Source: Clostridia bacterium (GTDB lineage: Bacteria > Bacillota > Clostridia > Oscillospirales > CAG-272). Taken from it: a stretch of DNA of 43,857 nt. The stretch is from NCBI GenBank assembly GCA_017456965.1, contig JAFTIJ010000178.1, positions 1 to 43,857 on the forward strand, read 5' to 3'. Of the stretch, positions 1 through 37,637 are shown piece after piece. The number at the start of each line of letters is the position of its first letter. Position 1 is the first letter of the stretch. The notes under the pieces were generated by a model that saw nothing but the letters and a program-made list of their open reading frames with translations, was not told where the DNA came from and ran no database searches. Both the position numbers and the translations under genes were made by a program.

Positions 1-783
1 CTCTCGCCGTACCCCACGGAGAAGGTCGCGGAGCTGATCGGTGACAGGCTACATGGGATAGAGATTACCGATGCCCGCGCATGTGCTGACGGGGCGGGAA
101 CGTATCTTGCGATCCAGACGAGCCGAGGAGAGACGCTTTTCGCCCGTATGAGGGATGAGGGGCTTCTTTGGCTCTGTACACTGAGGAATCAATTCCGCAA
201 AACGCATACCGACTTCGACTTTTTTCAGGATTCCCTGCGTCACAGCGTTGCCGCCGAGATCAGTGTGTGCGCGGTTTACCGGGACGCCGAGTATCCCGAC
301 GCGCTCTTCGTTGCCTTCCTTGCGGATGAAACGGAGAAAACACAGCAGGATATGCGTCAGATGGGCTTTGCGCTCTTCCGCGTTTTTGACGGACGCTATT
401 TTGCGCTGTCGGAGGTTTACGTTTGCGACGAGCGAGATCTCTTGTATGACGGCGTTTACCGTCCTCAGCTCCCCGTTCGTCTCGGCACGGAGGAAACGGA
501 TCGCTATTACGTTCTCCTCGTTCATCCGAAAAACGACGGTCTTCGCTTTGTGCAGACGGCGGAGAACGGCGAGGTGATCAAGGGCTCGGGCTGGGGGATT
601 CATCTTTTCTCGTGGGATACGGCAGAGAGCTACAGCATCACATATCGGATCTACGATTCCGACGGGGTGCTTTTGACGGAGCGCAAGATCTATAACGGAG
701 AGGATATTGCCCTTGAACGGGGTGGCGTGAACGTAGAGACGTTTCTTCGGGAGGGTATATTATCATATGAAGTGCAACACTGA
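1..783 (+). CDS. hypothetical protein, 5'-truncated by the window edge
   Basis: Frame 1 is open from nt 1 (LSPYPTEKVAELIG...) into the listed 148..783 ORF, with stop TGA at 781-783. No family recognised. The C-terminal YRIYDSDGVLLTERKIY looks like one YD-type repeat unit. Confidence 0.5.
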   Translation, partial: LSPYPTEKVAELIGDRLHGIEITDARACADGAGTYLAIQTSRGETLFARMRDEGLLWLCTLRNQFRKTHTDFDFFQDSLRHSVAAEISVCAVYRDAEYPDALFVAFLADETEKTQQDMRQMGFALFRVFDGRYFALSEVYVCDERDLLYDGVYRPQLPVRLGTEETDRYYVLLVHPKNDGLRFVQTAENGEVIKGSGWGIHLFSWDTAESYSITYRIYDSDGVLLTERKIYNGEDIALERGGVNVETFLREGILSYEVQH

Positions 784-975
784 AAAAAATCAGGATAAAA
801 CACAGAATAATGAATCCTTGCAAAAATAACGATGCCGTTTCCGTTTGCCCGATGTGTCCCGAAAGTATTTTGCCGTCTTCTCTGTATGCCGTACGGGGAG
901 AAACGCACGTACACCCTTGACGAAAAGCGACAAATATGGTATTCTGTATTTAACGAAACAAAAGGAGAAGATGCT

Positions 976-2628
976 ATGGCAATTCAAATGAAACTGATTT
1001 CCTCTCAGGAGAAATGCTTCATGGAGGAAATGATCTACTTGAAGCCTGCGATGACGCACACGAGCTGCTTGCGCGGTGAGGATTTTCACTTCCAGATCGT
1101 TTGCACCACGGTGCATACGCCGGGATGGGTCTTTGAGAATCCCGCGACGCTCGTTTGCCGCTCGGAGCTTACGGCTACGTTTGAGCGCGTGGAGCAGATT
1201 CCCGTCCGCTTCCCGTGCTATCCCATCCGAAACGATGAGAACTATCTGAGAAAGACCCCGGGGCTTTACCCCGATCTTCTGACGCCCCTCGCCATCGGTG
1301 ACTCCGTCTCCGTTCCCACGGGCATTCTGCAGTCGATCTACGCTACGGTTCACGTGCCCGAGGAGACCCGTGGCGGCGACTATCCCGTGACCGTCGGCTT
1401 TGCCATGGAGGACGGCACGGAGACCGTGCAGACCTTCACGCTCCACGTTGTGGATGCCGTATTGCCGAAGCAGGAGATTGCCGTCGCGCAATGGATGCAT
1501 TACGACTGCATTGCGGACGCACACGGGATCGAGATCTTCTCCGAGGCGCATTGGGAGGCAATGGCGAATTATATCCGTATGGCAGTCGAGCACGGCGTGA
1601 ATACGATCATGACGCCCGTCGTGACTCCCCCGCTGGATACCGCCGTCGGCGGTGAGCGCCCGACCGTTCAGCTCGTGGATATCGAGAAAACGGGTGATGA
1701 GTATCACTTTGGCTTTGATAAGCTCCGCCGATTCGTTGCCATGTGCCTTGATATCGGTGTCAGAACCTTTGAGATCGCGCATCTCTTTACGCAGTGGGGT
1801 GCATATCATGCGCCCAAGATCATGGCAACCGTGGACGGCGAGTATAAGCGGATCTTCGGTTGGGATACCGACGCCGCCTCCGACGAGTACATTGGCTTCC
1901 TGCGTGCCTTCCTTACGGCACTGATCGCGGAGATGAAGGCGCTCGGCGTTGACGATCGCATGATCTTCCACATCTCGGACGAGCCGAACGAGGAGCAGCT
2001 GGAGCAGTATCTCACCGTCAAGAGCAAGATCGCGGATCTGCTTGAGGAGTATCCGCTCTGCGACGCACTCTCCGACTTTGCGTTCTATGAGAAGGGCGTT
2101 GTCAAGCGTCCCATCCCCGCCTCCAATCATATCGAGCCCTTCCTGGAGGCCAAGGTCGAGGATCTCTGGACCTACTATTGTTGCGGTCAGTGGAGAGACG
2201 TCTCCAACCGCTTTATCGCGATGCCTCTTGCCCGTGAGAGGATCATCGGTACGCAGTTCTGGAAGTATCATATCGTCGGCTTCCTGCATTGGGGCTTCAA
2301 CTTCTGGTATTCCCGCTATTCCAAGCGACAGATCAATCCCTTTATCAATACCGATGCGGATTGCTTCGCACCCGCAGGCGACGCCTTCTCCGTATATCCC
2401 GCACCCGATAACAAGCCGTATCGCAGTCTGCGTCTGGTCGCCTTCCGGGAGGCGCTCTACGACCTCAGCGCAATGAAGCTTGCCGAGGAGCTTTGCGGCA
2501 GAGAGGCGGTGCGCTCTCTCCTTGAGGAGCAGGGCGAGGTCACCTTCTCCTCCTATCCCAAGGATGCGGAATTTTTACTTAGCTTCCGTGACCGTCTGAA
2601 CCGCATGATCGAGGCGCATCTTGCATAA
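976..2628 (+). CDS. DUF4091-like protein (putative glycoside hydrolase)
   Basis: The 832..2628 ORF is trimmed to ATG 976, which follows AAAGGAGA at 961-968. The N-terminus MAIQMKLISSQEKCF and the overall length resemble DUF4091/GH123-like proteins as I remember them. No signal peptide. Confidence 0.6.
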   Translation: MAIQMKLISSQEKCFMEEMIYLKPAMTHTSCLRGEDFHFQIVCTTVHTPGWVFENPATLVCRSELTATFERVEQIPVRFPCYPIRNDENYLRKTPGLYPDLLTPLAIGDSVSVPTGILQSIYATVHVPEETRGGDYPVTVGFAMEDGTETVQTFTLHVVDAVLPKQEIAVAQWMHYDCIADAHGIEIFSEAHWEAMANYIRMAVEHGVNTIMTPVVTPPLDTAVGGERPTVQLVDIEKTGDEYHFGFDKLRRFVAMCLDIGVRTFEIAHLFTQWGAYHAPKIMATVDGEYKRIFGWDTDAASDEYIGFLRAFLTALIAEMKALGVDDRMIFHISDEPNEEQLEQYLTVKSKIADLLEEYPLCDALSDFAFYEKGVVKRPIPASNHIEPFLEAKVEDLWTYYCCGQWRDVSNRFIAMPLARERIIGTQFWKYHIVGFLHWGFNFWYSRYSKRQINPFINTDADCFAPAGDAFSVYPAPDNKPYRSLRLVAFREALYDLSAMKLAEELCGREAVRSLLEEQGEVTFSSYPKDAEFLLSFRDRLNRMIEAHLA

Positions 2629-2640
2629 TTTTCAATGAAG

Positions 2641-2687
2641 AAACCTCCCGTCGGAAAGGAGCGATCCTTTCCGACGGGAGGTTTTAT
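2641..2687 (+). terminator. rho-independent terminator
   Basis: Perfect 19-bp stem (aacctcccgtcggaaagga / tcctttccgacgggaggtt) with loop gcga, running into T residues, 13 nt after the stop codon. Confidence 0.85.
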
Positions 2688-2719
2688 ATCATGTGGGAAT
2701 ACTAAATTGTAAACAAATT

Positions 2720-2745
2720 GTGAACAATAAATTTTTTCTGCGTGA
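2720..2745 (+). promoter_or_regulatory. candidate ECF-type promoter (GTGAAC-N15-CGTGA)
   Basis: An AAC-containing -35-like element and a CGT-containing -10-like element lie about 55 nt upstream of the sigma gene. The 15-nt spacer is shorter than the usual 16-17. Confidence 0.2.
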
Positions 2746-2800
2746 TTTTTATGGTTTTTCCGTGTATCAGATATAGAAAATCTCGAAAGGGCATCATTGC

Positions 2801-3361
2801 ATGTTGATATATTTATCCATGATCGAGGTCGGAGGAGACCGAGAGAATTTTGAACGTTACTACAGAAAGTACGCCGAGGATATCTTCGGCAGAATATATT
2901 CCATCCTGAAAAACCGTGAGGACGCGGAGGACGTCATGCAGGAGACGTGGCGAACTGTCGTCGAGCACATAGCGAAATTCCGAGGGAAGGATGACCGCGA
3001 GGTCCGCGCGTATATCATGCGCATCGCACATAATCGGGCGATCGACGTGTTAAGGGGCAAAAAGCGGGAGCGGGAGCTTTTCCGTGAGCTCACCCTTGTC
3101 GAGCCGATGGAGGAGCAAGCACTCTTTGCCCTTTGCGGCGAGACCGACCCGTCCGATATTCTTGCCTGCTTTTCCTCGTTGGATGCGATTTATCGCGACG
3201 TGCTGAATCTTTATTATCTTCATGATCACTCGGTCAAGGAGATCGCAAGGCTTCTTTGCCTCTCGGAGACGGCGGTTGGCTCTCGCCTGACCAGAGGGCG
3301 CAAAAAGCTGTACGATATGATGACGGAGACAGCAAGCAAAGGAAAGGGGGAAAGAAAATGA
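2801..3361 (+). CDS. RNA polymerase sigma factor, ECF/sigma-70 family (regions 2 and 4)
   Basis: DAEDVMQETW...YIMRIAHNRAIDVLR matches region 2. YYLHDHSVKEIARLLCLSETAVGSRLTRGRKKL matches the region 4 HTH. 186 aa. Paralog of 36419..36970. Confidence 0.85.
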   Translation: MLIYLSMIEVGGDRENFERYYRKYAEDIFGRIYSILKNREDAEDVMQETWRTVVEHIAKFRGKDDREVRAYIMRIAHNRAIDVLRGKKRERELFRELTLVEPMEEQALFALCGETDPSDILACFSSLDAIYRDVLNLYYLHDHSVKEIARLLCLSETAVGSRLTRGRKKLYDMMTETASKGKGERK

Positions 3362-4122
3362 CGGAGAAGGAACGTTTGGGTAAGACGGCTCTGCTTGAGG
3401 CCATGCGGCGGTTTGATCTAACCTATCCCGAGAGCTTCCCGCGTGAGGAGACGGGGATCCCGCACTCACGGGCGTATCTGAGAGCGCTCCGCCGTCTCTC
3501 GCAGTCGATCGACCGCGTGGAGCACAGGCCACGCCTCTCTGCATGGAAGCGTGCCATGATGGTTGCGATCACGCTTACCGCCGTGCTTTTCAGCGCGGTG
3601 ACCATTTCCGCCGCGGCTACGGGGAAGAGCTTCTCGTCGTACGTAACGACGCTCTATGAATATTTTGCGGAGATCGTTTTCGGTGAGGAGGAGATCGTGG
3701 CCGCACCGGAGAAGATCGACGCCGTGTATTCGCTCTCGTGGTTTCCGCAGCATTATGCGATCGAGAGCGCGGATATCGGTGCGATGACCTCGCAGATCGT
3801 ATGGCGAAACGGCGAGGGTGACAGGCTGATCCTGCACCAGGGGCTGTTGACCTCGCACGAGCTGATGATACACGGGGAGGCGGGGCTTGAGACGCTGACT
3901 GTCAACGGAACCGAGGTCACACGCTTTGCGCGTGGCGGACAGGTCTTTTTCTTCTGGTCGCAGTATGGCTACGCCTTTGAGCTCAGCGGACCTACCACCG
4001 TGTCACGGGAGGACTACGTTCGCATGATCGAATCTCTGAGGGAATCGAGCCTTTCCCGTGACCGCACAAATTCATGGTGGACAGTATACCGCGATGCGTA
4101 TACCGTCCGAGAGGAGGAGTAG
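3358..4122 (+). CDS. single-pass membrane protein, putative anti-sigma factor with a DUF4367-like extracytoplasmic domain
   Basis: ATG 3358 overlaps the sigma stop (ATGA). One TM segment (AMMVAITLTAVLFSAVTISAA). The C-terminal domain is similar to that of 36963..37637. No zf-HC2 (H..C..C) motif. The DUF4367 assignment is from memory. Confidence 0.55.
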   Translation: MTEKERLGKTALLEAMRRFDLTYPESFPREETGIPHSRAYLRALRRLSQSIDRVEHRPRLSAWKRAMMVAITLTAVLFSAVTISAAATGKSFSSYVTTLYEYFAEIVFGEEEIVAAPEKIDAVYSLSWFPQHYAIESADIGAMTSQIVWRNGEGDRLILHQGLLTSHELMIHGEAGLETLTVNGTEVTRFARGGQVFFFWSQYGYAFELSGPTTVSREDYVRMIESLRESSLSRDRTNSWWTVYRDAYTVREEE

Positions 4123-4124
4123 GG

Positions 4125-4841
4125 ATGATGAAACGGATACTGATGCTGGGACTGATTTTGGCGATGCTGTCGGGCGTTGCCTGCGACCGTGAGCCCGTAT
4201 ATATCAATACGGCAACGACGACGACCGATTTCTGCATTTTGGATCAGGGGGTCGCGGTCGTGGATACCCGCTACATGGGCTACCGTGGGCAGACTGAGGG
4301 TGCGACCGTGTCGGTCACGGTTGAGCTTTTGGATGAGCACGGCCGCTTTCGCTCCGTGATAAGCGAGACCTATTCTGCCGAGGGATATTACCACGTGGAG
4401 CAGAGACGCTATCGGATCGAGCGGCTTGGTACCTACCGTCTCATTGTCACCTATCTTGTATCGGGTGTGGATGGCTCGACGGATACCGTTACCACGACGA
4501 GGGAATACACGATCTCGGAGGGGGCAGTTTGTCCGAGGGGCTCGGGGATCGCCTTCTGCGTCCTTGACCCTGTCCCCGACTGCGCCGCGCCCGTCGTATG
4601 TCTGCGGTGCGGGCAGACGCCCGAGGATATGAGGCAGACCGTACGTATCATGCAGTCGATGGGCGGCGTGATCGCAGACCGTGACGAGACCTATCACTAT
4701 AAGCAATGCTTCCATACTACGGCACTGGGTGTGCCTTGCACGGCGCACGGCAGAGAGGAGCATATCTACTCGGACGGCGTCTGTACAGTCTGTCAATATG
4801 CACGCACCCGTTTGTCACGGAGAACGGAGGTGTCGGAATGA
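4125..4841 (+). CDS. probable secreted/lipoprotein with shared N-terminal domain and Cys/His-rich C-terminus
   Basis: GAGGAGGAG lies 5 nt upstream of ATG 4125. Signal peptide MMKRILMLGLILAMLSGVAC (non-canonical lipobox). Paralog of 4838..5521. Confidence 0.7.
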   Translation: MMKRILMLGLILAMLSGVACDREPVYINTATTTTDFCILDQGVAVVDTRYMGYRGQTEGATVSVTVELLDEHGRFRSVISETYSAEGYYHVEQRRYRIERLGTYRLIVTYLVSGVDGSTDTVTTTREYTISEGAVCPRGSGIAFCVLDPVPDCAAPVVCLRCGQTPEDMRQTVRIMQSMGGVIADRDETYHYKQCFHTTALGVPCTAHGREEHIYSDGVCTVCQYARTRLSRRTEVSE

Positions 4842-5521
4842 AGCGTAAGGGTCTTGCAATACTTTTGAGTACAGTGATGCTTTTTTTCTGCGCCTGTGCT
4901 CCGACGGAGTACGTCTATCACAATACCGCGACGGTGACGACCAATTTTTTTATTACCGAACTTGGTCTGATGGTGATCGACGTTCGCTATATGGGCTATC
5001 GGGATCGCACGGCGGGGGCGGAGATCTCTCTTGCCGTGGAGGAGAGGATGGGCGACGGCACATGGTCGGCTCTTTTTACTAAGAGCTATGCCGTCGAGGG
5101 CTACTGCTACACAGAGCAGTACACCGACTGGGTCGGGCATCTCGGTACCTACCGTCTTACCGCTTGCTATCTCGTTTTGGGACGGGACGGAAGCACGGAT
5201 ACGATCACTGCCACGCGGGAATATGTGCTGTCTGAGGGTGTTGTTTGCTCGGCGGCGGCGAACGGTGTACTTTGTCGTTATCTCCCGAACGCGGATTGCA
5301 CGGCGCCCGGCGTGTGCGAGCGGTGCAAAACGGTGCCCGAGAAGATGAAGCAGTCTGCGCATTTCCCGTCGGGAGAGGTCGTGTATTGGGATGAGACCTA
5401 TCACTACTGTCGGTGCGACCATGTTACGCCATTTGGCGATCCGTGCACCTATATCGGAGGGCGCGAGCATAGCTTCTCCGAGCAGGTCAGGGGATGTCTC
5501 TATTGCGGCTACGGAAAATAA
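4838..5521 (+). CDS. probable secreted/lipoprotein, paralog of 4125..4841
   Basis: ATG 4838 overlaps the upstream stop (ATGA). Signal peptide MKRKGLAILLSTVMLFFCAC. Motifs shared with its neighbour: D.RYMGYR, LGTYRL, GxDGSTDT, DETYHY. Confidence 0.7.
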   Translation: MKRKGLAILLSTVMLFFCACAPTEYVYHNTATVTTNFFITELGLMVIDVRYMGYRDRTAGAEISLAVEERMGDGTWSALFTKSYAVEGYCYTEQYTDWVGHLGTYRLTACYLVLGRDGSTDTITATREYVLSEGVVCSAAANGVLCRYLPNADCTAPGVCERCKTVPEKMKQSAHFPSGEVVYWDETYHYCRCDHVTPFGDPCTYIGGREHSFSEQVRGCLYCGYGK

Positions 5522-5544: not shown

Positions 5545-6054
5545 ATGATGAAAAGGATGCTTTGCGTGCTATTGCTTGGCTGTCTGCTGCTTTCACTGTC
5601 CGCCTGTGAGCGTAACGGCACGCTTCTGCACGCGGAGAACTACGGGGAGGCGTTTCGCATGAAGAATGCGATCCTGTATCCAAACCCCGACTGCAAACAT
5701 GCGCTGATCAGCTCCTCTGCCGAAAAATATTTGAATGAGGCGGATTGCACCCGATATCATATGACGATATGTAAGCACGGCGGATGCGACTACGGGAGAC
5801 AGTTTCATCCGCATTCGATTCGGATCGGCGGTCTTATCATGTTCAATCAGGTCATACAGATGACGGACGGATATCTGTATCATCGGTATGCTGTTGCCTG
5901 TGCCGATTGTAATTTGCGCGTGGATCTGTATTCGCCCTGCGAGGTGCAGCGCCTTGATTGCAATACACAGGAGACGGCAAAAAGGAATGGGTGCCTCAAT
6001 AAAAATTGGGAGGAGATCTTATGCGATACACCTTACGAAATATTGTACGATTGA
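5545..6054 (+). CDS. Cys/His-rich lipoprotein of unknown function
   Basis: AAGGGAGG precedes ATG 5545. Canonical lipobox LSLSAC. Paralog of 10076..10624 with conserved Cys/His positions and a NWEEI...PYE(I/L)L C-terminus. Confidence 0.75.
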   Translation: MMKRMLCVLLLGCLLLSLSACERNGTLLHAENYGEAFRMKNAILYPNPDCKHALISSSAEKYLNEADCTRYHMTICKHGGCDYGRQFHPHSIRIGGLIMFNQVIQMTDGYLYHRYAVACADCNLRVDLYSPCEVQRLDCNTQETAKRNGCLNKNWEEILCDTPYEILYD

Positions 6055-7487
6055 AGACGAGAACGCTTCTGACTCTGCTGATTTCCTTTGCGATCCTATT
6101 TCTTTCCATGTTCGGCGTTCTTGTGATGCGGCTCTGTGAGGATAACCGTGCCATGTTTTACGGTCCCTTGGACGGTTCGGTTCACGTCACCGATGCTGAA
6201 TATCAGCCCTTCATGACCTATCATGCGGCGATGACGATCGGTGAGGATGCCGATCTCGTCACACGTGTCTCCGCCGTCAAAGCCTATAGCGGCATTTTGG
6301 AAGACGTGTCCTACGTTGGGTACGGTACCTTCCGCAGAGCGCGTTTTACAGGTGAAGTCTCGACGGATGAGGACAGAAAGATGAATTACGTCAAGGGCTT
6401 TCGCATCGTTGCCGTCAGCGAAATGGAGATGCTGGAGGACGTTTTCTCGGGGAAGCTCACGATGGTGCAGGGAAGGATGCTGACACGGGAGGATCACGAG
6501 AGCGCTGCCGATCGGATCGTGATCTCTGAGGAGCTTGCCCTGCAAAACGGTCTATCTCTCGGGGATACCGTAACGCTGGATATGCCCTCTCTCTACCGTA
6601 CGGAGTGGGAGTCCCGCTTCTACGCCGGGTCAGACGAGGCGAGCGGGTACGATTTTGTGATCAGCGGCATCTACCGACACCGCGAGGACAACCGCGCGGG
6701 CGTCAATATGCCGTGGCTGCTGAACGCAAATCAGGTATATATCCCGATATCTACTTTGGCGGAGATCGCGGAATGTGAAACCGTCCTGTCGCTTTATCAC
6801 ACTGAGGGGGAGGATGCGCTGAGCGAAAACCCGTGTCTTATCCCCGATTCACTCTATCTGCATCTCTCTGATATGAACCGAGCGCAAGCGCTCTCGGACG
6901 AGCTGAATGCGCTCGGGTTTCTGAGAAGAGTGATCCTGACCGAGTACGTCTCCGATGCGTCGAGCTCACCGACGGCTCGCCTCTCTGAGATCACTGCGAT
7001 CATCCTTGTCGGTATCGTTGCCATCGGTTTTCTCGTATTGCTGCTCTCTGCGCTCTTTCAGATGAAGACGAGACACCGCGAGCTTGCCGTTCTGACCGCA
7101 CTTGGGAAAAGGCGGCGTCGGGTCGCGCTCTCGTTTTTTGCGGAGCTCTGTCTGCTTCTTGCCGTCGCCTTTTTGGGTGCGGGTGCTCTGATCTGTGCCG
7201 TGGTATTCGTGATCGCGGCACCGCTTGTCGGCTATCTTCACGCCGCAGAGCTCTCCGAGCAGATCCTGACGGAGACGGCGGCGCACGTCCTCTCGGGGGC
7301 GGCGTCCGACGCGCAGACCCTGATCGGACAAATGGAGAATTACGACTTTCTGCTTTTGGAATACGTTTTTCCCTGTATCTCGTTTGCCGCGGCGGTCTGG
7401 TTTTGCCTGATGGGGGTGCTTTTGGTCATTACACAGATATACGTCGGACGGATCAACGCGCTGTCGGATGTCGGCGGAAAGGAGTAG
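6021..7487 (+). CDS. ABC transporter permease, FtsX/MacB family (type 1: TM1, large extracytoplasmic domain, TM2-4)
   Basis: GGAGGAG precedes ATG 6021, which lies inside the 3' end of the previous gene. N-terminus MRYTLRNIVRLKTR. FtsX-type segment FQMKTRHRELAVLTALGKRR followed by hydrophobic helices. Confidence 0.85.
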   Translation: MRYTLRNIVRLKTRTLLTLLISFAILFLSMFGVLVMRLCEDNRAMFYGPLDGSVHVTDAEYQPFMTYHAAMTIGEDADLVTRVSAVKAYSGILEDVSYVGYGTFRRARFTGEVSTDEDRKMNYVKGFRIVAVSEMEMLEDVFSGKLTMVQGRMLTREDHESAADRIVISEELALQNGLSLGDTVTLDMPSLYRTEWESRFYAGSDEASGYDFVISGIYRHREDNRAGVNMPWLLNANQVYIPISTLAEIAECETVLSLYHTEGEDALSENPCLIPDSLYLHLSDMNRAQALSDELNALGFLRRVILTEYVSDASSSPTARLSEITAIILVGIVAIGFLVLLLSALFQMKTRHRELAVLTALGKRRRRVALSFFAELCLLLAVAFLGAGALICAVVFVIAAPLVGYLHAAELSEQILTETAAHVLSGAASDAQTLIGQMENYDFLLLEYVFPCISFAAAVWFCLMGVLLVITQIYVGRINALSDVGGKE

Positions 7488-7553
7488 GGGCTTCGTGCTT
7501 TCCTTTGTGTTGCGAGGATCTGCGCTGATCGAAAAAATATAAAGGAGTTTGCC

Positions 7554-9392
7554 ATGCTTATCAAATTTGCATTTCGGAATCTGCGCCGTCTTCCGTGGAG
7601 AACGGTGCTCTACAGCTCTGCGGTCTTTCTTGTTATCCTTGCGATGACCGCATCGCTCCTTGTTCTGTGTGCGTGTGAAAACGCGAGGACGACGCTGGAG
7701 GAGGAATATATGTTTGTTGCATCTCTCGTGCACCGTCCCAATACCAACGTCTATATGTCGGACGTCGGGCTCTGCACGCAGGGGAATGAGATCCTTGGCA
7801 TAAATCTTGCCATGGCGGAGGGGCAAGCGGTGATCCCGGGCGGTGTGCATATGACGGAGTATCCCGATGAGGACAATATGCCGTCCGAGCCCTCTGCCTT
7901 GTATATGGAGCCGTTCGGATGCAATCTGTTTGCCGTGGAAAATCTCTCGATGGTCTATCCCTTTTTTACGGGGGAGTACACCATTCGGGAGGGAACGGGA
8001 CTGACCGCCGAGGGATATACGGGAGAGCGCGCGGAGCTTGTCATTCCGTGGTGGCTTGCGGATCAATACGGTATCGGCGTTGGCGATACCGTCATGCGGC
8101 GGTATAATCATTACGGTCACAATAATAACGGCCATTACAGCTATCGTGAGTGCACGGTCGTCGGGATCTACGAGGCAAAAAACAAGAGCGCATCCCCCGA
8201 CAGCTATCCTGCATATATGACGGTCGGCAGAGCGGAGCGTGATTACGATAACTTTTTTATTCCAAGAACCGTCACGCCCATCGTCCTTGACCGCGTGGAT
8301 TTCGTGCTTCGGGGACGGGATAGCTTCGGCACGTTTGTAAAAACGGCAGAGGCCAACGGCCTTGCGCTTGACCGCGTGGATCTGGTCTTTAACAATGCCA
8401 CCTACGATACGCTCCTTGCTGAGCTTGACAGTATTCGGACGGTCGCCCTCTTTGTTTTTCTGACCGTCCTTACCGTAGGGCTTGGCGTGCTCATTTTCTT
8501 TACGGTGCTTCTTTGTCATACGCGGGAGCGCGAGCGCCGTTTGCTCGTGTCCCTCGGTATGACAAGAGGCGGCGTTTGCAGGATGCTCGCATGGGAGCTT
8601 GCCGTGATGCTGCTCGTTGCCGTAACGCTCGGACTTGGCGTCGGGTATCTTGCGGCGGAGGGCGTTTGCTCCTATGTCAACGGGAGCGTGCTTGCGCGGG
8701 CTTCCGCATCACAGAGAGTCCGTAACCTTTCGTCGGACGAGGCCTTTGACGAGACGATGCCGCTGGAGAAAAGGATCGAGCTCTCCGTTTCCGTCTTTGA
8801 CACAACGGTATCGGCAAGCGCGCTCTATTTCAATTCGATGTGTCTGCCGGATGAAAATGAACTTGGTATCAGCCGTCTGACGCTTCCGTTTATCGAAACG
8901 GGCGAAAACGGTTATCCCCGTGAGGGGATTGAAAACGGCGTGTGGCATCCGACGACGATCGTTGCCGTTACCGACCCAGACGCCGTTGGCGTTTCGGTTT
9001 CGACCGAGGCGCTGAGAGCAAGGGCGGATTACAATCCGTATTCCATTTATATGTATGTCAGCGAGAGCTCGCCGTTTGCGCCCAAGGACGGTGACGACGG
9101 TCTGCTTCGTCTGTATTTTGGCAAGGATATGCAGGGCTGTGTTTCAGTCGTCGACGATTTCGCGATACGTCTTGGCGGTGAGCCGTTGGTTCGATACGGA
9201 CGGGAAAACGTGGCCGGTATCGTAGCGGCGTACGTCATCGGCACCTATCGGGACAACGCACTCTGCTCGGGAGAGGACGTCCTGATCTGTATGGAGGATT
9301 ACCACGATATGTTCGAGGCGCTTTCGGTGGATTTTGGCGGCTTTCGGTTTGAGCGGATCGGCCATATCATCAATAAGGAGGAATTGCAATGA
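7554..9392 (+). CDS. ABC transporter permease, FtsX family (type 2: atypical, long soluble C-terminal domain)
   Basis: AAAGGAG RBS. N-terminus MLIKFAFRNLRRLPWRT. FtsX-type loop HTRERERRLLVSLGMTRGG. By eye there is no hydrophobic stretch in the last 220 or so residues. Confidence 0.8.
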   Translation: MLIKFAFRNLRRLPWRTVLYSSAVFLVILAMTASLLVLCACENARTTLEEEYMFVASLVHRPNTNVYMSDVGLCTQGNEILGINLAMAEGQAVIPGGVHMTEYPDEDNMPSEPSALYMEPFGCNLFAVENLSMVYPFFTGEYTIREGTGLTAEGYTGERAELVIPWWLADQYGIGVGDTVMRRYNHYGHNNNGHYSYRECTVVGIYEAKNKSASPDSYPAYMTVGRAERDYDNFFIPRTVTPIVLDRVDFVLRGRDSFGTFVKTAEANGLALDRVDLVFNNATYDTLLAELDSIRTVALFVFLTVLTVGLGVLIFFTVLLCHTRERERRLLVSLGMTRGGVCRMLAWELAVMLLVAVTLGLGVGYLAAEGVCSYVNGSVLARASASQRVRNLSSDEAFDETMPLEKRIELSVSVFDTTVSASALYFNSMCLPDENELGISRLTLPFIETGENGYPREGIENGVWHPTTIVAVTDPDAVGVSVSTEALRARADYNPYSIYMYVSESSPFAPKDGDDGLLRLYFGKDMQGCVSVVDDFAIRLGGEPLVRYGRENVAGIVAAYVIGTYRDNALCSGEDVLICMEDYHDMFEALSVDFGGFRFERIGHIINKEELQ

Positions 9393-10054
9393 AAATTCTT
9401 GACTTGAACGGCATCAGCTACGATTATACCACGAAGGCGGGCAAGGTACACGCGCTGAAGGAGGCGACGGCGAGCTTTGAGACGGGCGTGGTCTACGCCA
9501 TCGTCGGCCGCTCGGGTAGCGGCAAATCCACGCTGATGTCGCTGATGGCGGGTCTGGACGTTCCGAGGGACGGGGACGTCCGTTATCGGGGCGAAAGTCT
9601 GCTATCCATGGACCGCGACCGCTATCGCAGAGAGCACGTTGGCATGATCTTCCAGAGCTACTATCTTCTCCCTCAACTCACCGCGGTCGAGAACGTGGAG
9701 CTCTCGCTGGAGCTTGCCAACTATAGGGGCAACAAAAGAGCGCGTGCCGAGGAGATGCTGACGCTCGTCGGTATCCGACGCGAGCAGTTCAGAAAGCGAA
9801 GCACGCAGTTCTCCGGCGGTGAGCAGCAGCGCATCGCCGTCGCACGCGCCATCGCCGCCGACCCCGAGCTGATCCTTGCGGACGAGCCGACGGGCAACCT
9901 CGACAACGAAAACAGCATGAACATCGTAGAGATCCTCACCGAGCTTGCGCATCGGTACGGGAAGTGCGTCATCATCATTACGCACGCCGCCGAGGTTGCG
10001 GAGCGAGCCGACCGCGTTCTCAGAATGGACGACGGATATCTGCGTGCCGAATGA
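9389..10054 (+). CDS. ABC transporter ATP-binding protein (MacB/LolD-type)
   Basis: Walker A GRSGSGKST, signature FSGGEQQRIAVARA, Walker B LILADEPTGNLD. ATGA overlap with the upstream permease. Confidence 0.95.
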   Translation: MKILDLNGISYDYTTKAGKVHALKEATASFETGVVYAIVGRSGSGKSTLMSLMAGLDVPRDGDVRYRGESLLSMDRDRYRREHVGMIFQSYYLLPQLTAVENVELSLELANYRGNKRARAEEMLTLVGIRREQFRKRSTQFSGGEQQRIAVARAIAADPELILADEPTGNLDNENSMNIVEILTELAHRYGKCVIIITHAAEVAERADRVLRMDDGYLRAE

Positions 10055-10075
10055 CCGTACGGAAAGGAGTCTTTG

Positions 10076-10624
10076 ATGAAAAAACTACCGTCTCTTTTTC
10101 TCATCCTTCTTTTTGCGTTGCTTCTTGGCGCTTGCGGGGAAGAGCAGGGCTCTTATTTGCACGGAGAACGCTACGGAGCGGAATTTCGCAAGGAAAACGA
10201 CAATCTGTTTCCCAATCCCGAGTGCGTGCATCGGATCGACGAGGTCGGCGCCGACGGCGTCCTGCCGCCGGAAGAGGCGGAGCTTTATCATATGGTCGTC
10301 TGCAAATATCCGAACTGCGATTACGAGCCGCAATACGAGCCCCACACCCTGTATCTCTACGAGCCGTATTTCAGGGGCTATCCTCAATACGCCGAGAACG
10401 GCTATCTCTATCATACGCCCCACGTCTATTGTTATGAGTGCTCCCGCGTGATCGGGGTGCGGATCCTGTGCTTGACGCAGGATGTGAACTGTGGGCGTGA
10501 GGGCGAGGTCCTCAGTAAGGAGACCAACTGTCTTTTGGGGGTGAATTGGGAGGAGATATTCCGTGAATATCCGTATGAGCTTCTGATCCGTGAGGAGACG
10601 ACCGCCCCGTCTCCGATCCCGTAA
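10076..10624 (+). CDS. Cys/His-rich lipoprotein, paralog of 5545..6054
   Basis: GGAAAGGAG precedes ATG 10076 (the listed start at 10073 is TTG). Lipobox LLLGAC. Shares the NP(D/E)C.H, YHM..CK, GYLYH and NWEEI motifs with the first copy. Confidence 0.75.
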   Translation: MKKLPSLFLILLFALLLGACGEEQGSYLHGERYGAEFRKENDNLFPNPECVHRIDEVGADGVLPPEEAELYHMVVCKYPNCDYEPQYEPHTLYLYEPYFRGYPQYAENGYLYHTPHVYCYECSRVIGVRILCLTQDVNCGREGEVLSKETNCLLGVNWEEIFREYPYELLIREETTAPSPIP

Positions 10625-10661
10625 GGCTATTTTTTCGTAACGATTGCAAAAGGAGGATCTT

Positions 10662-12137
10662 ATGCGATACGCGCTGAGAAACATCATCCGCCTGAGGGCA
10701 AGAAGCATTCTGAGTATGCTGATCGTCCTCTGTGTACTGCTCCTTGCCATGCTCGGCGTTTTTGTCCGACGGCTCTGCGAGGATACCCGTGCACACTTTT
10801 ACGGTCCGCTCGACGGCTCGGTTCACGTGACGGACGAATCGTATCACGGCGTCCTGAATTACGGGGCGGCGCTCACGGTCGCGGAGGACGCCGACGTCAT
10901 TACGGGCGTCTCCGCCGTCAAGGAATACACGGGGATGCTCTGCGATCTTTACTACGTCGGCTATGACGGCATGAGGCGCTACAGCTTCTCGGGTGAGGAA
11001 AAAACGGAGGATCGCAGGTCTCCGTATCTCAAGGCCTTCTCCGTCTGTGCCGTCAGCTCGATGGCGATCTTGCCGGAGGTCTACGGCGGTGACCTTACTC
11101 TTTTGGGTGGCTCCATGATTACGGATGCAGATACGGCGGAGATCGAAAACAAGATCGTGATCTCCGAGGCGCTTGCCATGTAAAATGGGCTTTCTCTCGG
11201 GGATACGGTCGTTTTGCATACGCTCTCTCTTTTTTACGAGGAATATACCCTTTGCAAATATCTTCAGCTTTCGGAGAGCGAGGGGCTCTCGCCGCCCACG
11301 CGGGCGTACGTGATCGGTGGGATCTACCGCCACGCCGTGGATAATGCGGCGGCAGTCTCCGAGCCGTGGTCGCTCCACGCGAATACTGTGTATATTCCGA
11401 TCTCCACGGTAAGCGAGGTCGCGGAATCCGAGGCGATACGGGAGCTCTACGGCAGTCAGGGGGGCTACGCGATCAAGAGCGAGCCCCGCGTCGTTCCCGA
11501 CGCGCTGTATTTTCATCTGTCGGATATGCGTGTCGCCGAGGCGCTGGAGGAGGAGCTGAATCAGCTTGGCTTCCTTAAAACGGTCCGACTGACGGAGTAC
11601 GTTTCGGATACGGCGTCGTCTCCGTCCGTCCGCCTGTCGCAGAGCCTCTCCTACGTGCTTGTCGGCGTGATCGCTGTCGGCTTTGCGATCCTTGGGCTCT
11701 CCGTATTCTTCGATATGAAAACGCGGCACCGCGAGCTTGCGATGCTGATCGCGCTCGGCAAGCGGCGGTCCCATGTGACGGGGTCCTTTTTTGCGGAGCG
11801 GGTCCTTCTGATTCTGCTTGGCGGTCTTTTGGCCACGGCGCTACTTGCTACGTTCGTTTTGCTTTGTGCCGAGCCGCTTTTGCAGTATCTGTACTCCGCG
11901 GAGCTCTCCGCGCAGTTTTACGGGGAGACTGCCGACATGGTGCTGATGAGCACGCCCGTCGGGGCGCTGATCTCGCAGAGCATGGCACGGCCGTCGTATC
12001 TTATCACGGCGTATCTGCTCCCGAGCGTTGCCTTGGTGTGGGTCGCGGTCCCCGTGCTGTCGGTGATCCTTTATACCGTCGTTTTGCTTTATGCCCGTAA
12101 GATCCGACCGCTCTGTGATGTCGGAGGAAAGGAATAA
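10662..12137 (+). pseudogene. FtsX permease type 1, second copy, interrupted by an in-frame TAA at 11181-11183
   Basis: ORFs 10644..11183 and 11214..12137 are in the same frame. Homology to 6021..7487 runs across the stop: VISEALAM-stop-NGLSLGDTV versus VISEELALQNGLSLGDTV. Confidence 0.8.
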
Positions 12138-12140
12138 AGG

Positions 12141-12176
12141 GCAACGTCGTCGGGTGTCCGCGCCCGGCGACGTTGC
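12141..12176 (+). other. GC-rich hairpin (possible terminator or stabiliser) with no U-tract
   Basis: gcaacgtcg / cgacgttgc outer stem with an inner cggg/cccg stem, 4 nt after the stop at 12137. There is no counterpart in the first gene copy. Confidence 0.35.
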
Positions 12177-12265
12177 AGTGAAGTATTCCGCTGATCGCGG
12201 AACGTTAAGGTAAAATTTATTATAATTTTTAAGTTGGCGACATGAGAATAGGAGGAGGGTATATC

Positions 12266-14077
12266 GTGATCTTCAAATTTGCTATGAGAAATCTCGTGCG
12301 TTTTCCGTAGAGGACGCTTCTGTACGGCTTCACCGTGCTTTTCGTCGTCATGACCGTGACCGCATCCTTCGTTGTCCGCGGCGCCTGTGAGCAGACGGAG
12401 CGGTCGCTGGCGCGGGACTATATCTTCGTTGCCTCTCTCGTTAAGCGCTCGGCGGCGAACGATTTCCCACTTGCCGAGGTGGTCCGATGCCTGGAGTACC
12501 CGGGCGTCGTTGCCTTCAACGCGACGCTCTCCTATGCAAACGGTGGGATCCCCGAGGGGGAGACGCTCCTTGCGTACCCGTCACGGACGGAGGGTGTGGG
12601 GGCGTCGGTCCTTTTGCCGGAGGCACTCTGTCCGATTCAGGGTGTTGAGAATCTGGCGCTGGTCTATCCCTTCTTTTCTGGGGAGTGTACGGTCCGAGAG
12701 GGAACGGGACTCACGCCAAGGGGCTATGCGGGTGAGGTGGCGGAGGTCGTCATCCCTTGGTATCTTGCCGAGCGCCACGGAATTCGGGTCGGGGATACGG
12801 TCAATCGCCGATATTACAGCGACGTTGTCGGAGACGACGGTTATTGGTATATCCCGACGGTCGTCGTCGGGATCTATGAGACCTCCGCCCCCGACCCCGA
12901 GACGGAGGACTATCCCGCCTATATGCCGCTTGCCGTGACCGAGCTTGATTTCGGTGAGCTACAGTATGATGAGCGCGTTTTCAATATGTCGGAGCATCAC
13001 AAGGCGGTGCGTGCGGATTTCGTTCTGGAGGGAAGAGAGGCATTTGCGTCGTTCGTTGCCTTTGCCAAGGAACGCGGCGTCAATTTTCAGAACGTGAATA
13101 TGGTATTCAATAACAGCACCTACGACGTGCTTGCCTCGGAGATCGGCAACATCCGCATGATTGCGACGATCGTATGGATCTCCGTGATCGTGGTCGGCCT
13201 TGGTATTCTGATCTTTTTCACGGTCTATTTGTATCATGCGAGAGACAAGGAGCGACTTCTCCTCGGCTCGCTCGGTATGAAAAGGGGCGCGGTGCGCGGC
13301 ACGATCGCGTTGGAGCTGATCGTGCTTTTCGTCGTCTTTGCGGTGATGGGCCTCGGCGTCGGTGAGCTTGCCGCCGAGGCACTTTGCCGCACGGTCGATG
13401 ACACCGTGCTTGCCCGTGCGTCGGCCTCCGATGCGGTCAGGGACGTGACCTCCGCCTCCGAGTTTGACATCACCATGCCGCTTGAAAAAAATATGCGGCT
13501 TCGCATCCTCGGACGGGATGACGGCACGGAGGAGCCAAGCCTTGCGTGGAACCGCATCGTTCGTCTTGCCGAGGACGAGCTCGGCGTATCAAGGCATCGG
13601 CTCTTCGTTTACCAAACGATATCGGAGCTTCGGAAATACGCGCCTCCCTACGTTCCGACCGCAGAGGAAACCATGGAGATTTTTACGAGGGAGCGTACCG
13701 CCGTGGACGTCATCGGCGTGACCGATCTTTCCGCCTTCATTTTGCACGAGACGTCAGGTGTGCAGAATGAGCAGGCGATACGGTTGTACGTCAGCGAGGA
13801 TTTCTGCTACAGGGACGAGGGCAGTCTCTTTTTGTGCAGATTCAACGCGGGGGATACCTTTTTTAACGACGTCAGCTACACCCGATTCATGCCGTCGATG
13901 CCCTGCAGGAGCTATAGGGTGGTCATTGCGGGAACCTATGAGAAAAACGAATTTTGCTCGGGAAACGAGGTTCTCGTTTCCATGGAGGACTACCACAAGC
14001 TCTACAGCCTGATCTCTCTCACCGATCCCGACTACCATTTCCATCGCATCGGTGAGGTCGTGTCCGCTTCTCATTAA
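12266..14077 (+). pseudogene. FtsX permease type 2, second copy, interrupted by an in-frame TAG at 12308-12310
   Basis: GGAGGAGGG RBS and GTG 12266 give VIFKFAMRNLVRFP-stop-RTLLYG, versus MLIKFAFRNLRRLPWRTVLYS in 7554..9392. Same frame as ORF 12335..14077. Confidence 0.8.
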
Positions 14078-14102: not shown

Positions 14103-14150
14103 ATTCTCCGCGGAGAATCATGATCCCCGACGGTCAAATCCGTCGGGGAT
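14103..14150. terminator. hairpins between convergent genes
   Basis: Palindrome attctccg/cggagaat at 14103-14118. An 11-bp stem atccccgacgg/ccgtcggggat at 14123-14150 is followed by ttgctgtttt on the + strand. Confidence 0.6.
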
Positions 14151-14182
14151 TTGCTGTTTTATAAACCGGGGATTGTAGTACG

Positions 14183-16330: not shown

Positions 16331-16374
16331 GGCGTAGCGTCTCCTTTTTCTCATGTTGTCGTTTGGGATGCGGA

Positions 16375-16400
16375 TGCCCCGTACCGCAAGCGATACGGGG
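16375..16400 (-). other. hairpin between the flotillin and LRR genes (weak terminator or processing site)
   Basis: gccccgta...tacggggc 8-bp stem with an inner cgc/gcg extension. No U-tract on either strand. Confidence 0.3.
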
Positions 16401-16440
16401 CACCGAATGTTTTATGCTGTCAGAGGCAATGGGGGTGGTC

Positions 16441-18241: not shown

Positions 18242-18270
18242 TTGATTTTTTGCTTGAAACTTGATATAAT
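18242..18270 (+). promoter_or_regulatory. sigma-70-type promoter for the LysR-type regulator gene
   Basis: TTGATT (18242-18247), a 17-nt spacer with TGa immediately upstream of the -10, then TATAAT (18265-18270). It lies 38 nt upstream of ATG 18308. Confidence 0.6.
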
Positions 18271-18307
18271 AGGAGATACGATATTTGGCGGGAGGGAAGA
18301 GCACGCG

Positions 18308-19633: not shown

Positions 19634-19742
19634 GCGTTTGCGACAGCCAAAAAACGCAGAACGTCACCCGTGCAGGTGTAAACGGGATCCCGTCCGTGCA
19701 CGCGGCGGATCAAAGAAAAACAGAAAGTAGGATGGTACACTT

Positions 19743-36418: not shown

Positions 36419-36970
36419 ATGATGAGTCTGTTTCTGTCCATGCTCGATAACGAGACAGACAGGATAAATTTTGAAAGGATATATAAAAAATATTCTGACG
36501 GCATATTCCGCCGCGTTCTCTCCATGACGCGCAATGTACAGGATGCGGAGGATATTGTGCAGGAGTGCTGGATCAAGGCCGCAAAAAACATGGCGCTTTT
36601 TCGGGGAAGGGACGAGAGTATGATCCGCTCTTATATCATGCGTATCGCCTATCACGAGACGGTCTCCTTTGCGCGCACCAAAAAGCGAGAGGCGGCGCTT
36701 GTGACCGAGCTTGAGGATGCAGAGCCGCTTGCGGACGATGGGGAGCTTTTCACCGTGTGCGAGCGGGAGGGCGTGGAGACGATCCGTGCGTGCATCCGCG
36801 AGCTCGGCGACGTTTACAGCGAGACGCTGATCTATCATTATCTCTATCACTATACGCCGAAGGAGATCGCGACGATGCTGGATATGAAGGAGATCACCGT
36901 AAGAAAAAGAATATCCCGCGGACGGGAAAGGTTAGTGAAATTATTGGAGAGGAGGGGGATCCATGACTGA
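36419..36970 (+). CDS. RNA polymerase sigma factor, ECF/sigma-70 family, paralog of 2801..3361
   Basis: DAEDIVQECW...YIMRIAYHETVSFAR (region 2) and YHYTPKEIATMLDMKEITVRKRISRGRERL (region 4). Same N-terminal (F/Y)LSM(L/I) start as the first sigma. Confidence 0.85.
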   Translation: MMSLFLSMLDNETDRINFERIYKKYSDGIFRRVLSMTRNVQDAEDIVQECWIKAAKNMALFRGRDESMIRSYIMRIAYHETVSFARTKKREAALVTELEDAEPLADDGELFTVCEREGVETIRACIRELGDVYSETLIYHYLYHYTPKEIATMLDMKEITVRKRISRGRERLVKLLERRGIHD

Positions 36971-37637
36971 TGACAAGAGTGGCAGACAACGCTTGGAGGA
37001 GGCGCTGTTATTGTACGATCGGGCGTATTACGACTCGTTTCCCGTAGCGACGGAAAAGTATACGCACACGCGTGGCTTTGGGAAACGAATGCGCGAGGCA
37101 CTGTTTCAAGCGCCATCGCAGACGGAGAATGCGAGATCGCTTGGCAAGCGCACGGTGTTTATGCTGCTTGCCGCCGCGCTGATGGTGGCGGGGGCGATGG
37201 GAGTGACGGCGATCGGAGAGCGCCACGGCGGCTTCTATCTGCATTCGGGGGGCAATTTTATGGAGCTTGTCTCGGGTGGCGAGTATGCCGCGGGGGCACC
37301 TATGCGCATTGAGACGGTATACTGTCCGACCGTGCCGTCGGCGTTTCGCGTGACGAGGGAGCATGTTACCTCATACGAGGTGAAATATATCTGGGAGGAT
37401 GAGACGGGTGCGCGGATCATTTTCACCCAGCTTCTGCTCGGTGCGAAATCCACGATGGATAATGAAAACGCGGATCTCCATATCCGCTACGTCGGTCACC
37501 TGCGCCTCGCTTGCTCCGACAAAAACGGACTGAAGAGCTTCTATTGGAATGACTCGGGGTATTCCTTCTCGCTCGTGGTTCCAAGTGCAATGCCCGATGC
37601 CGTATGCGTGGAGCTCATACGCTCCGCTTGTGAATAG
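36963..37637 (+). CDS. single-pass putative anti-sigma factor with DUF4367-like domain, paralog of 3358..4122
   Basis: 8-nt overlap with the sigma gene. One TM segment (TVFMLLAAALMVAGAMGVTAI). The C-terminal domain ends GYSFSLVVPSAMPDAVCVELIRSA, like GYAFELSGPTTVSREDYVRMIESL in the paralog. Confidence 0.55.
   Translation: MTDDKSGRQRLEEALLLYDRAYYDSFPVATEKYTHTRGFGKRMREALFQAPSQTENARSLGKRTVFMLLAAALMVAGAMGVTAIGERHGGFYLHSGGNFMELVSGGEYAAGAPMRIETVYCPTVPSAFRVTREHVTSYEVKYIWEDETGARIIFTQLLLGAKSTMDNENADLHIRYVGHLRLACSDKNGLKSFYWNDSGYSFSLVVPSAMPDAVCVELIRSACE

Follow-up and report, generated by a model that had tools for sequence, protein, structure and literature searches.

What is a domain that recurs directly behind the signal peptides of different exported proteins, and why is it encoded next to a sigma factor and its anti-sigma factor? 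The question is raised by contig JAFTIJ010000178.1 of the Clostridia bacterium assembly GCA_017456965.1 (GTDB lineage Oscillospirales; CAG-272), whose 43,857 nucleotides (nt) are referred to here, at their full length, as the window. Other contigs from the run series of this metagenome contig belong to a Clostridia MAG (metagenome-assembled genome) from roe-deer caecum. A preliminary description of this DNA had proposed that two lipoproteins, LipA and LipB, share a domain of roughly 100 amino acids (aa) with two YD-repeat proteins, YD1 and YD2, encoded 30 kb away, and that the domain may be recognized by an anti-sigma sensor or by the ectodomains of transporter permeases. We regard it as firmly established that the domain constitutes a new exported immunoglobulin (Ig)-like family with a fixed position behind the signal peptide, and equally firmly established that it is linked to one type of extracytoplasmic function (ECF) sigma/DUF4367 anti-sigma pair. 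The domain protein is probably the third part, or else the main product, of the switch formed by that pair.

Four Proteins of the Window Share an N-Terminal Domain

The four open reading frames (ORFs), together with the peptides quoted from them earlier, are all present in the window, and the approximate domain coordinates first given agree with the limits measured here:

4125-4841 (+): LipA, 238 aa, a probable lipoprotein; domain at aa 25-137 (nt 4197-4535), followed by a Cys-rich C-terminal module
4838-5521 (+): LipB, 227 aa, a tandem paralogue of LipA; domain at aa 25-138 (nt 4910-5251)
33776-36385 (+): YD1, 869 aa, with an N-terminal anchor or signal; domain at aa 41-144 (nt 33896-34207), with YD-like repeats over the next 720 aa or so
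37657-40119 (+): YD2, 820 aa; domain at aa 37-140 (nt 37765-38076), then YD-like repeats

The shared segment of about 105 aa is collinear in all four proteins, directly follows the signal peptide or anchor, and retains 17 invariant columns in a four-way alignment (T-A...T.F...G...GY...G.Y...Y...G...D and a trailing Cys). Pairwise identity between the domains is low, at 27-39%, and this is the only observation that speaks for a chance or compositional resemblance with no real domain behind it. Against such a resemblance, phmmer searches with signal peptides removed and a six-frame translation of the window as database are both reciprocal and exclusive: each domain retrieves the other three and nothing else, with Lip-versus-YD cross-matches at E 1.3e-10 to 3.9e-6 (22-38 bits) and all unrelated ORFs above E 0.2, and full-length BLASTP comparisons of the Lip with the YD proteins give E 8e-10 and 1e-9. 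The confident predicted fold, the 129 sequence clusters found at E <= 1e-10, and the conserved position in the protein and in the gene neighborhood, all described below, point the same way, and together these data rule out chance similarity, whose probability we consider negligible. The domain proposed for the four proteins is thus borne out by the 17-column alignment and by exclusive cross-matches spanning roughly 1e-10 to 4e-6, and the sequence evidence identifies the four segments as genuine homologues. Over their full lengths LipA and LipB are paralogues (44% identity, E 1e-60), as are YD1 and YD2 (31% identity, E 4e-105).

Three of the original labels hold only in part. The trailing Cys is invariant in the four window proteins, but most family members end before it. 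The description of LipA and LipB as lipoproteins is plausible, with a Cys closing the hydrophobic region, but their lipoboxes (GVAC and FCAC) are non-canonical, positions -3 to -1 reading G-V-A and F-C-A against the lipobox [LVI][ASTVI][GAS]C. As for the YD repeats, YD2 contains one stretch matching TIGR01643 (YD_repeat_2x) at 33.9 bits against a cut-off of 15.8, with no match to PF05593, but YD1 matches no RHS or YD model in Pfam or NCBIfam, its sole match being a sub-threshold one to MORN_2. Neither protein matches an RHS-core or toxin model (NCBIfam at E <= 0.1, Pfam at E <= 0.01) or has a relative in the PDB by sequence.

The Domain Defines an Unnamed Family with a Predicted Ig-like Fold

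The profile search of databases that the preliminary description had recommended uncovers a significant family. An exhaustive search of 1.84 billion cluster representatives returned 309 clusters at E <= 1e-3, of which the 129 mentioned above lie at E <= 1e-10; the true family size is visible only by this route, a word-indexed search of 5.8 billion proteins having yielded four domain relatives, all of about 136 aa and consisting of a signal peptide and the domain. Architectures were counted over the 134 near-full-length matches among the best 150 of the 309 clusters. About three quarters of them (100/134) are stand-alone secreted proteins of about 135-150 aa, and 33 carry C-terminal extensions longer than 60 aa, which comprise BspA-type leucine-rich repeats (LRR_5), DUF5050, Cys-rich modules of the LipA/LipB kind, YD-like repeats and regions matched by no model. 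In nearly all 134 the domain begins at about residue 20-60, after a signal peptide of the Sec or lipoprotein type, and the few later starts resemble over-extended gene calls. Many fused members have clear lipoboxes, and one relative (P0010; family members are numbered with P) has the lipobox LCSC.

The stand-alone members P0035-P0151 conserve P-[RCY]-[YFL]-N-N-[TV] where the first strand begins, just past the predicted cleavage site; in the window this motif is represented by the variants (Y/I)-N-T-A or L-H-T-A. The Cys-rich C-terminal stretches of LipA (aa 138-238, nt 4536-4838) and LipB (aa 139-227, nt 5252-5518) contain CxxC pairs and have no Pfam or NCBIfam match. By eye, similar stretches follow the domain in P0010, P0022, P0024 and P0046 and, with an HTHVW motif, in P0048, P0054 and P0063, and they may represent a second unnamed module.

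That the domain is unnamed, as had been supposed, is upheld by the model libraries: among 66 family members scanned against Pfam-A (2025 copy) no family is common to more than three (best E 0.004), LipA and LipB match no Pfam family at E <= 0.01, no model in NCBIfam 20.0 matches the domain, and the best hit against PDB sequence profiles has E 0.61. An AlphaFold2 model of the LipA domain has seven strands and is confident (predicted local distance difference test score, pLDDT, 87.8; predicted template modelling score 0.80). Foldseek searches of the PDB with this model return generic Ig-like sandwiches only, with query-normalized template modelling (TM) scores up to 0.72, none better than E 1e-3 and with 8-19% sequence identity; they include factor XIII barrels (TM-score about 0.7), the Bacillus subtilis protein IPI (3isy), NPC2/ML and CARDB. 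The model thus places the domain in the Ig-like/E-set beta-sandwich fold class: it is like generic Ig-like and E-set domains in its seven-strand sandwich topology, and has no sequence-profile relation to them in the PDB, Pfam or NCBIfam. The preliminary description had allowed that the domain might prove to be a widespread Ig-like module that is already annotated and has no particular genomic association; the predicted Ig-like fold agrees with this, but the domain is neither annotated nor, as follows, unlinked.

The Domain Gene Is Linked to ECF Sigma/DUF4367 Anti-Sigma Pairs

Each of the two loci of the window encodes one sigma factor and one anti-sigma factor:

2801..3361 (+): ECF sigma factor 1 (sigma1), 186 aa; Sigma70_r2 (1.4e-15) and Sigma70_r4_2 (2.1e-14); TIGR02937 at 84.5 bits, cut-off 42.9
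3358..4122 (+): anti-sigma factor 1 (anti-sigma1), 254 aa; about 60 aa cytoplasmic, transmembrane helix at aa 65-89, DUF4367 ectodomain
36419..36970 (+): ECF sigma factor 2 (sigma2), 183 aa, a paralogue of sigma1; Sigma70_r2 and Sigma70_r4_2; TIGR02937 above cut-off
36963..37637 (+): anti-sigma factor 2 (anti-sigma2), 224 aa; transmembrane helix at aa 63-86, DUF4367-like ectodomain

By their domain content, regions 2 and 4 only, both sigma factors are assigned to the ECF class (group 4). The two pairs are paralogous, as had been noted before (phmmer E 4e-41 for the sigma factors and 1e-16 for the anti-sigma factors), and hydropathy predicts a single hydrophobic transmembrane helix in each anti-sigma factor. 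Anti-sigma1, whose gene call is identical to that on record for the source contig, clears the PF14285 cut-off of 22.1 bits with a score of 25.3; anti-sigma2 reaches 18.8 bits, under this cut-off, and is homologous to anti-sigma1, to the anti-sigma factor of locus L017 (3e-49; sampled loci are numbered with L) and to those of other loci. Both can accordingly be classed as DUF4367-type, by PF14285 or by homology to its carriers. A word-indexed protein search gave 3 to 26 anti-sigma relatives, and 25 of the 26 carry PF14285. In an AlphaFold2 model of anti-sigma1 the ectodomain is confident (pLDDT about 90) and the cytoplasmic and transmembrane parts are poorly modelled; the top Foldseek matches of the ectodomain are structures of RseB (2v43, 2p4b and 3m4w), which are weak (E 1e-3 to 8e-3, TM-score about 0.27-0.29). 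The literature searched gives no account of DUF4367 anti-sigma factors: the term "DUF4367" led to a single preprint on the LolA-like GerS and B. subtilis SsdC, which does not deal with anti-sigma factors, "PF14285" is absent, and DUF4367 is also missing from the main text of the ECF re-classification paper.

The window contains two paralogous copies of one module, arranged as sigma1/anti-sigma1/LipA/LipB/lipoprotein/FtsX/FtsX/ATPase at locus 1, where the genes following LipB encode a MacB-type ATP-binding cassette (ABC) transporter as judged from domain matches, and as YD1/33 nt/sigma2/anti-sigma2/19 nt/YD2 at locus 2. Within locus 1 the genes from sigma1 to LipB all overlap or lie no more than 3 nt apart: the anti-sigma1 start overlaps the sigma1 stop (ATGA), LipA starts 3 nt past the anti-sigma1 stop, and the LipB start overlaps the LipA stop (ATGA). 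At locus 2 the anti-sigma2 start overlaps the end of the sigma2 gene. Some 20 kb of central-metabolism genes separate the loci, which are therefore two separate copies of the module and not one system. Of the earlier proposal that they form one functional family or regulon, the first half stands, as these are paralogous copies of one module type, but a single regulon is unsupported, since each copy has its own sigma factor.

How general this arrangement is was assessed in two samples. A scan of one genome per GTDB species yielded 16 loci, all in metagenome-assembled genomes (MAGs) of gut or rumen Clostridia, and a metagenome scan for a distant stand-alone subgroup yielded 80 loci, mostly from the human gut, 59 of them with enough flanking DNA to be informative. 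Sampling relied on two sub-alignments (A6 and A7), broader alignments being insufficiently conserved, and is biased towards two subgroups; the roughly 40 non-redundant modules obtained are too few for covariation analysis. In every one of the 16 genome loci an anti-sigma homologue lies upstream on the same strand, accompanied by a sigma gene in nearly all cases where the contig permits, and the gene immediately 3' of the anti-sigma gene carries the domain, as it also does in a second, divergent module in L006. In three contigs the gene for the stand-alone relative P0003 comes directly after those for an ECF sigma factor and a DUF4367 protein, and tandem pairs of domain proteins comparable to LipA/LipB occur in L013 and L019. 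Look-ups from three anti-sigma homologues found a domain gene next door each time, a result that is not independent, the profile having been built from the same loci. Modules are also multiplied within genomes, with four in RGIG4737 (one MAG), two in L006 and two in the window. In these modules the domain protein is either the domain alone (about 140 aa) or a surface protein with the domain at its N-terminus.

In the distant subgroup an anti-sigma gene lies within 3 kb of the domain gene in 41 of the 59 informative loci (by sequence cluster, in about 10 of 14 informative ones), and in 38 of the 41 the sigma/anti-sigma operon and the domain gene are convergent, with three co-directional; the linkage is therefore independent of co-transcription. 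Firmicutes have on average about 7 ECF sigma factors per genome (PMC7826278), and that figure puts the chance of a random gene falling within 3 kb of any ECF sigma gene, by rough estimate, on the order of 1%. The co-occurrence with DUF4367-type anti-sigma factors that had been recommended for scrutiny is thus found both as adjacency in the genome loci and as proximity in the distant ones, and the association between the domain and the sigma/anti-sigma pair is specific, reaches deep into the family and is independent of gene order.

Several members of the human-gut subgroup (L025, L063, L101 and L102) stand beside relaxase, recombinase or ParM-like genes and are therefore carried on mobilizable elements. 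The sigma/anti-sigma side gives way to an ABC exporter and a radical-SAM enzyme in the L063 group, and in L025 the domain gene is separated from the convergent anti-sigma gene by genes for four small proteins, exported or membrane-bound, of which one is VanZ-like.

The second partner suggested earlier, the permeases of an ABC transporter, is encoded in the remainder of the locus-1 operon (5545..10054):

5545-6054 (+): lipoprotein, the third of locus 1
About 6021-7487 and 7554-9392 (+): two permeases with Pfam MacB_PCD and FtsX matches
9389-10054 (+): ABC ATPase, ABC_tran match

The reading in which the domain is a partner or substrate of this MacB-type transporter, recognized by the FtsX permease ectodomains, can draw on the co-operonic position of LipA and LipB, on the close orthologous locus L100, where GH123, sigma, anti-sigma and a LipA-like gene are followed by the same transporter gene set with the ATPase first, and on L081, where a homologue of the ATPase (7e-62) is encoded immediately upstream of the domain gene, following a membrane protein of 666 aa. 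Homologues of the window ATPase occur within the flanks of 23 of the loci L001-L099; the permease beside it was checked in a few of the 23, and at least that of L063 is of a different ABC type (an ABC_membrane fusion). No homologue of the window FtsX proteins is found in L001-L099, however, most modules have no transporter at all, and locus 2 of the window itself lacks one. A general link between FtsX and the domain is rejected on these data; the transporter link occurs in the window and L100 only, confined to the LipA lineage, and we consider the domain very unlikely to be a transporter partner.

Promoter-like Motifs and Probable Membership in the Sigma Regulon

In the convergent loci the domain gene requires, by virtue of that arrangement, its own promoter, and a bipartite motif seen by eye recurs ahead of both the domain gene and the sigma gene. 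The corresponding pattern, GT[ACT][ACT][CT]C-N17-TGTTG[TA]A, occurs 22 times in 19 representative loci, whereas 30 shuffles gave 0-2 occurrences; six of these sites served to define it and the remaining 16 are independent. Sites lie 5-230 nt upstream of the domain gene in L053, L059, L069, L071, L073 and L083, and at the same range of distances upstream of the sigma gene in L059, L071, L073 and L081. They are also found upstream of other secreted-protein genes and, in L071 and L073, of a giant RHS gene divergent from the domain gene. Membership of the domain gene in the sigma regulon is well supported in these relatives.

The RHS neighbors bear on a further possibility, namely that the domain is an accessory of RHS/YD surface proteins or toxins, which it would tether, present or help deploy, and that the sigma/anti-sigma pair only regulates them. 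The giant protein of L071 and L073 (about 1-4760, minus strand) comprises 15 RHS_repeat matches (5e-87) with Peptidase_C39_2 and DUF6531, and its gene stands back to back with the domain gene under the same promoter motif. In L101 and L102 the module, on a mobile element, is followed by a gene for a 1963-aa protein (about 7299-12675) with faint RHS_repeat and weak AHH matches, RHS-like neighbors or remnants also occur in L049 and the L084 group, and YD1 and YD2 of the window join the domain to YD-like repeats. Most genome-locus modules, however, consist of sigma, anti-sigma and a small protein only, amid unrelated neighbors, the LipA/LipB locus has no YD or RHS gene, and the YD-like regions of the window, like its Cys-rich tails, have no homologue in the other loci. 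An accessory role of this kind is, in our view, unlikely.

In the window itself two candidate promoters are preceded, at locus 1, by a hairpin that sets the sigma1 operon apart from upstream transcription:

2642..2681 (+): terminator-like hairpin after the GH123 gene; GC-rich inverted repeat, then a T run
2739..2780 (+): promoter-like motif of the ECF type, ahead of sigma1; TGCGTGA-N15-CGTGT...ATAGAA
33715..33756 (+): promoter-like motif of the ECF type, ahead of YD1; TGTATAA-N16-CGTCT...ATAGAA

The motif of the window subfamily, TGyrwnA-N15-16-CGTsT...ATAGAr, differs from that of the convergent loci. The site upstream of sigma1 has the same layout as sites upstream of the sigma genes in L006, L013, L017 and L019, and the 42-nt promoter region of L017, whose sigma factor is the closest relative of sigma2, finds its best window match at 33715 (28/42 identical positions versus 22-27 in 20 shuffles). 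A scan with the window-type pattern gave 9 matches versus 2.4 expected, of which 7 are the sites from which the pattern was built, and the pattern is suggestive only. Terminator-like hairpins flank the module operons. We infer that YD1, sigma2, anti-sigma2 and YD2 form one autoregulated operon and the genes from sigma1 through the ABC genes another, both of which would be transcribed in a sigma-dependent manner.

Other Features of the Window

Downstream of the locus-1 ATPase gene, positions 10073-14077 contain a tandem duplicate of the lipoprotein/FtsX/FtsX segment (5545-9392) that does not include the ATPase. Each duplicate permease has one in-frame stop, a TAA (about 11181-11183) in place of the Gln of its paralogue and a TAG (about 12306-12308) in place of Trp, so that these copies represent pseudogenes or else errors of assembly. 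Next comes a strong terminator-like hairpin (14122-14151). The minus strand at 14183-16354 encodes a 723-aa BspA-type LRR_5 protein with neither a signal peptide nor the domain, and next to it two long ORFs overlap on opposite strands (16363-17871, plus, with no Pfam match, and 16441-17910, minus). The central-metabolism block at 18242-33595 encodes a LysR regulator, Ldh/Mdh, class II fumarase, CCG/Hdr-like and iron-sulfur proteins, a fumarate-reductase-type flavoprotein, GTP-dependent phosphoenolpyruvate carboxykinase and the redox repressor Rex; the stretch is GC-rich and many of its long antisense ORFs are spurious. After YD2, two small multi-spanning membrane proteins of 201 and 131 aa with no Pfam match are encoded at 40270-41291. 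They are preceded by a hairpin (40125-40161) and a sigma70-like promoter match (40028-40056), and their genes are probably a separate transcription unit.

Discussion

Taken together, the data presented here make it very probable that the domain belongs to a conserved sigma/anti-sigma/domain module in which the domain gene is part of the sigma regulon. Most likely, this module consists of an ECF sigma factor, a single-pass DUF4367 anti-sigma factor whose ectodomain may resemble RseB/LolA (on a weak structural match), and one or two exported domain proteins. What the domain does within it is a matter of two main possibilities, neither of which we would call probable by itself.

The first, which we tentatively favor while placing it somewhat short of an even chance, is that the domain is a signaling partner of the anti-sigma factor, with predicted physical contact between the two. 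In such a mechanism the sigma factor would transcribe its own operon and the domain gene, and the domain protein would be exported and remain near the membrane, where its Ig-like domain would touch the anti-sigma ectodomain and gate, or feed back on, the inactivation of the anti-sigma factor; the variable C-terminal modules (LRR, YD-like repeats, Cys-rich) would provide ligand or contact specificity. We prefer this role because the linkage outlasts deep divergence and changes of gene order, because every paralogous sigma/anti-sigma pair retains its own domain protein, because the domain is the membrane-proximal N-terminal module of unrelated surface proteins, and because three quarters of the family are the domain alone.

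Several observations weigh on the other side. Adjacency and shared promoters would be expected equally well of a pure regulon target; the stand-alone members, which lack an anchor and whose signal peptides are of the ordinary cleavable kind, could diffuse away as a product; an anti-sigma gene is absent from the 3 kb around the domain gene in 18 of the 59 informative distant loci (the L063 and L088 groups among them); the RseB likeness of the anti-sigma1 ectodomain is marginal (E 1e-3, TM-score about 0.28); and the window-type promoter motif is weak and recovers the sites from which it was built.

The second possibility, that the sigma regulon merely has the domain proteins as its chief output, with the domain acting as a membrane-proximal spacer, stalk, adhesive or shielding module of surface proteins that neither contacts the anti-sigma factor nor signals, is a serious one, which we hold to be quite conceivable if less than probable. 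It would account for the generic Ig-like sandwich fold, for the fusions to typical surface modules such as LRR_5 and YD-like repeats, and for co-transcription or a common promoter motif with the sigma operon, as for any target; N-terminal beta-sandwich spacers behind a lipobox have also been proposed in other cases, such as DUF1735 of Bacteroidota (PMC11216935). It fits less well with the three quarters of the family that are the domain alone, where there is nothing to space or anchor, with an adjacency that persists down to about 25-30% identity and through changed gene order, which is more typical of signaling components, and with the retention of a separate domain protein by each paralogous sigma/anti-sigma pair of one genome.

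A more elaborate form of the signaling role would make the module a Gram-positive counterpart of cell-surface signaling: the Ig-like module, carried on varied surface receptors (LRR, YD-like, Cys-rich) or as a free sensor, would dock onto its cognate RseB-like DUF4367 ectodomain and relay ligand binding or cell contact to the ECF sigma factor, which would in turn drive expression of the receptor itself and, in many genomes, of RHS-type toxins. We regard this extended scheme as doubtful in its entirety.

ECF sigma systems are a major route of bacterial signaling. To our knowledge, the input signal is unknown for most ECF groups of Firmicutes, and we know of little understanding of how cell-surface and competition functions are regulated in Gram-positive gut bacteria. 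An unnamed conserved extracytoplasmic partner offers a handle on one ECF group in abundant, uncultured gut and rumen Clostridia: the module provides three small proteins with directly testable interactions together with a candidate regulon-defining promoter motif, and it has recurrent ties to RHS/YD-repeat proteins, BspA-type LRR proteins and a MacB-type transporter, which belong to such cell-surface and competition functions. A domain model for the family is warranted and would allow hundreds of "hypothetical proteins" to be annotated consistently.

Comparison with known systems can help to delimit how such a module may work. With Escherichia coli sigmaE-RseA-RseB it shares the joint encoding and, it seems, the autoregulation of an ECF sigma factor, an anti-sigma factor with one membrane span and an accessory protein outside the cytoplasm, and possibly a LolA/RseB-like sensor fold, RseB being the best, if weak, match of the anti-sigma1 ectodomain (E 1e-3, TM-score about 0.28). 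Unlike in E. coli, however, the RseB-like domain here lies within the anti-sigma factor itself (DUF4367), the separate third protein is a predicted Ig-like sandwich, and the window host is Gram-positive, with no outer membrane or lipopolysaccharide signal. FecA-FecR-FecI and the SusC-like/anti-sigma/ECF trios of Bacteroides likewise place a short extra domain behind the signal peptide of varied surface proteins, whose gene lies beside a dedicated sigma/anti-sigma pair and is apparently controlled by it, with many paralogous sets per genome. Here, in contrast, there is no TonB-dependent receptor or STN domain (no Pfam match to STN, Plug or TonB_dep_Rec in the window proteins or 66 family members), the fold is different, the anti-sigma factor is not FecR-like and the domain mostly stands alone, so that the likeness is one of arrangement logic and a comparison of possible working, not of membership.

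CnrY-CnrX-CnrH of Cupriavidus is another ECF system of three parts, with a small, separate protein outside the cytoplasm that acts on the anti-sigma factor, as the domain protein would in the signaling role. CnrX, however, senses metal and is helical, CnrY is an anti-sigma factor of very short length, and there is no sequence or fold relation to the window module. SigV-RsiV and SigI-RsgI resemble it as sigma/anti-sigma pairs of Firmicutes, in which the anti-sigma ectodomain binds an external ligand (lysozyme for RsiV, polysaccharide for RsgI), and, for SigI-RsgI, in the multiplication of pairs within one genome, although SigI is not a canonical ECF sigma factor (PMC7826278). They differ in that their ligand is foreign and not a product of the same operon, and in their ectodomains, which are of the DUF4179 type in Firmicutes anti-sigma factors (PMC7826278) and carbohydrate-sensing modules in RsgI. 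By analogy, the closest counterparts in logic, none of them a relative, would be RseB acting on RseA, CnrX on CnrY and the N-terminal signaling domain of FecA on FecR. Set beside them, the module described here is a three-part ECF module of a known general type, built around a new domain family.

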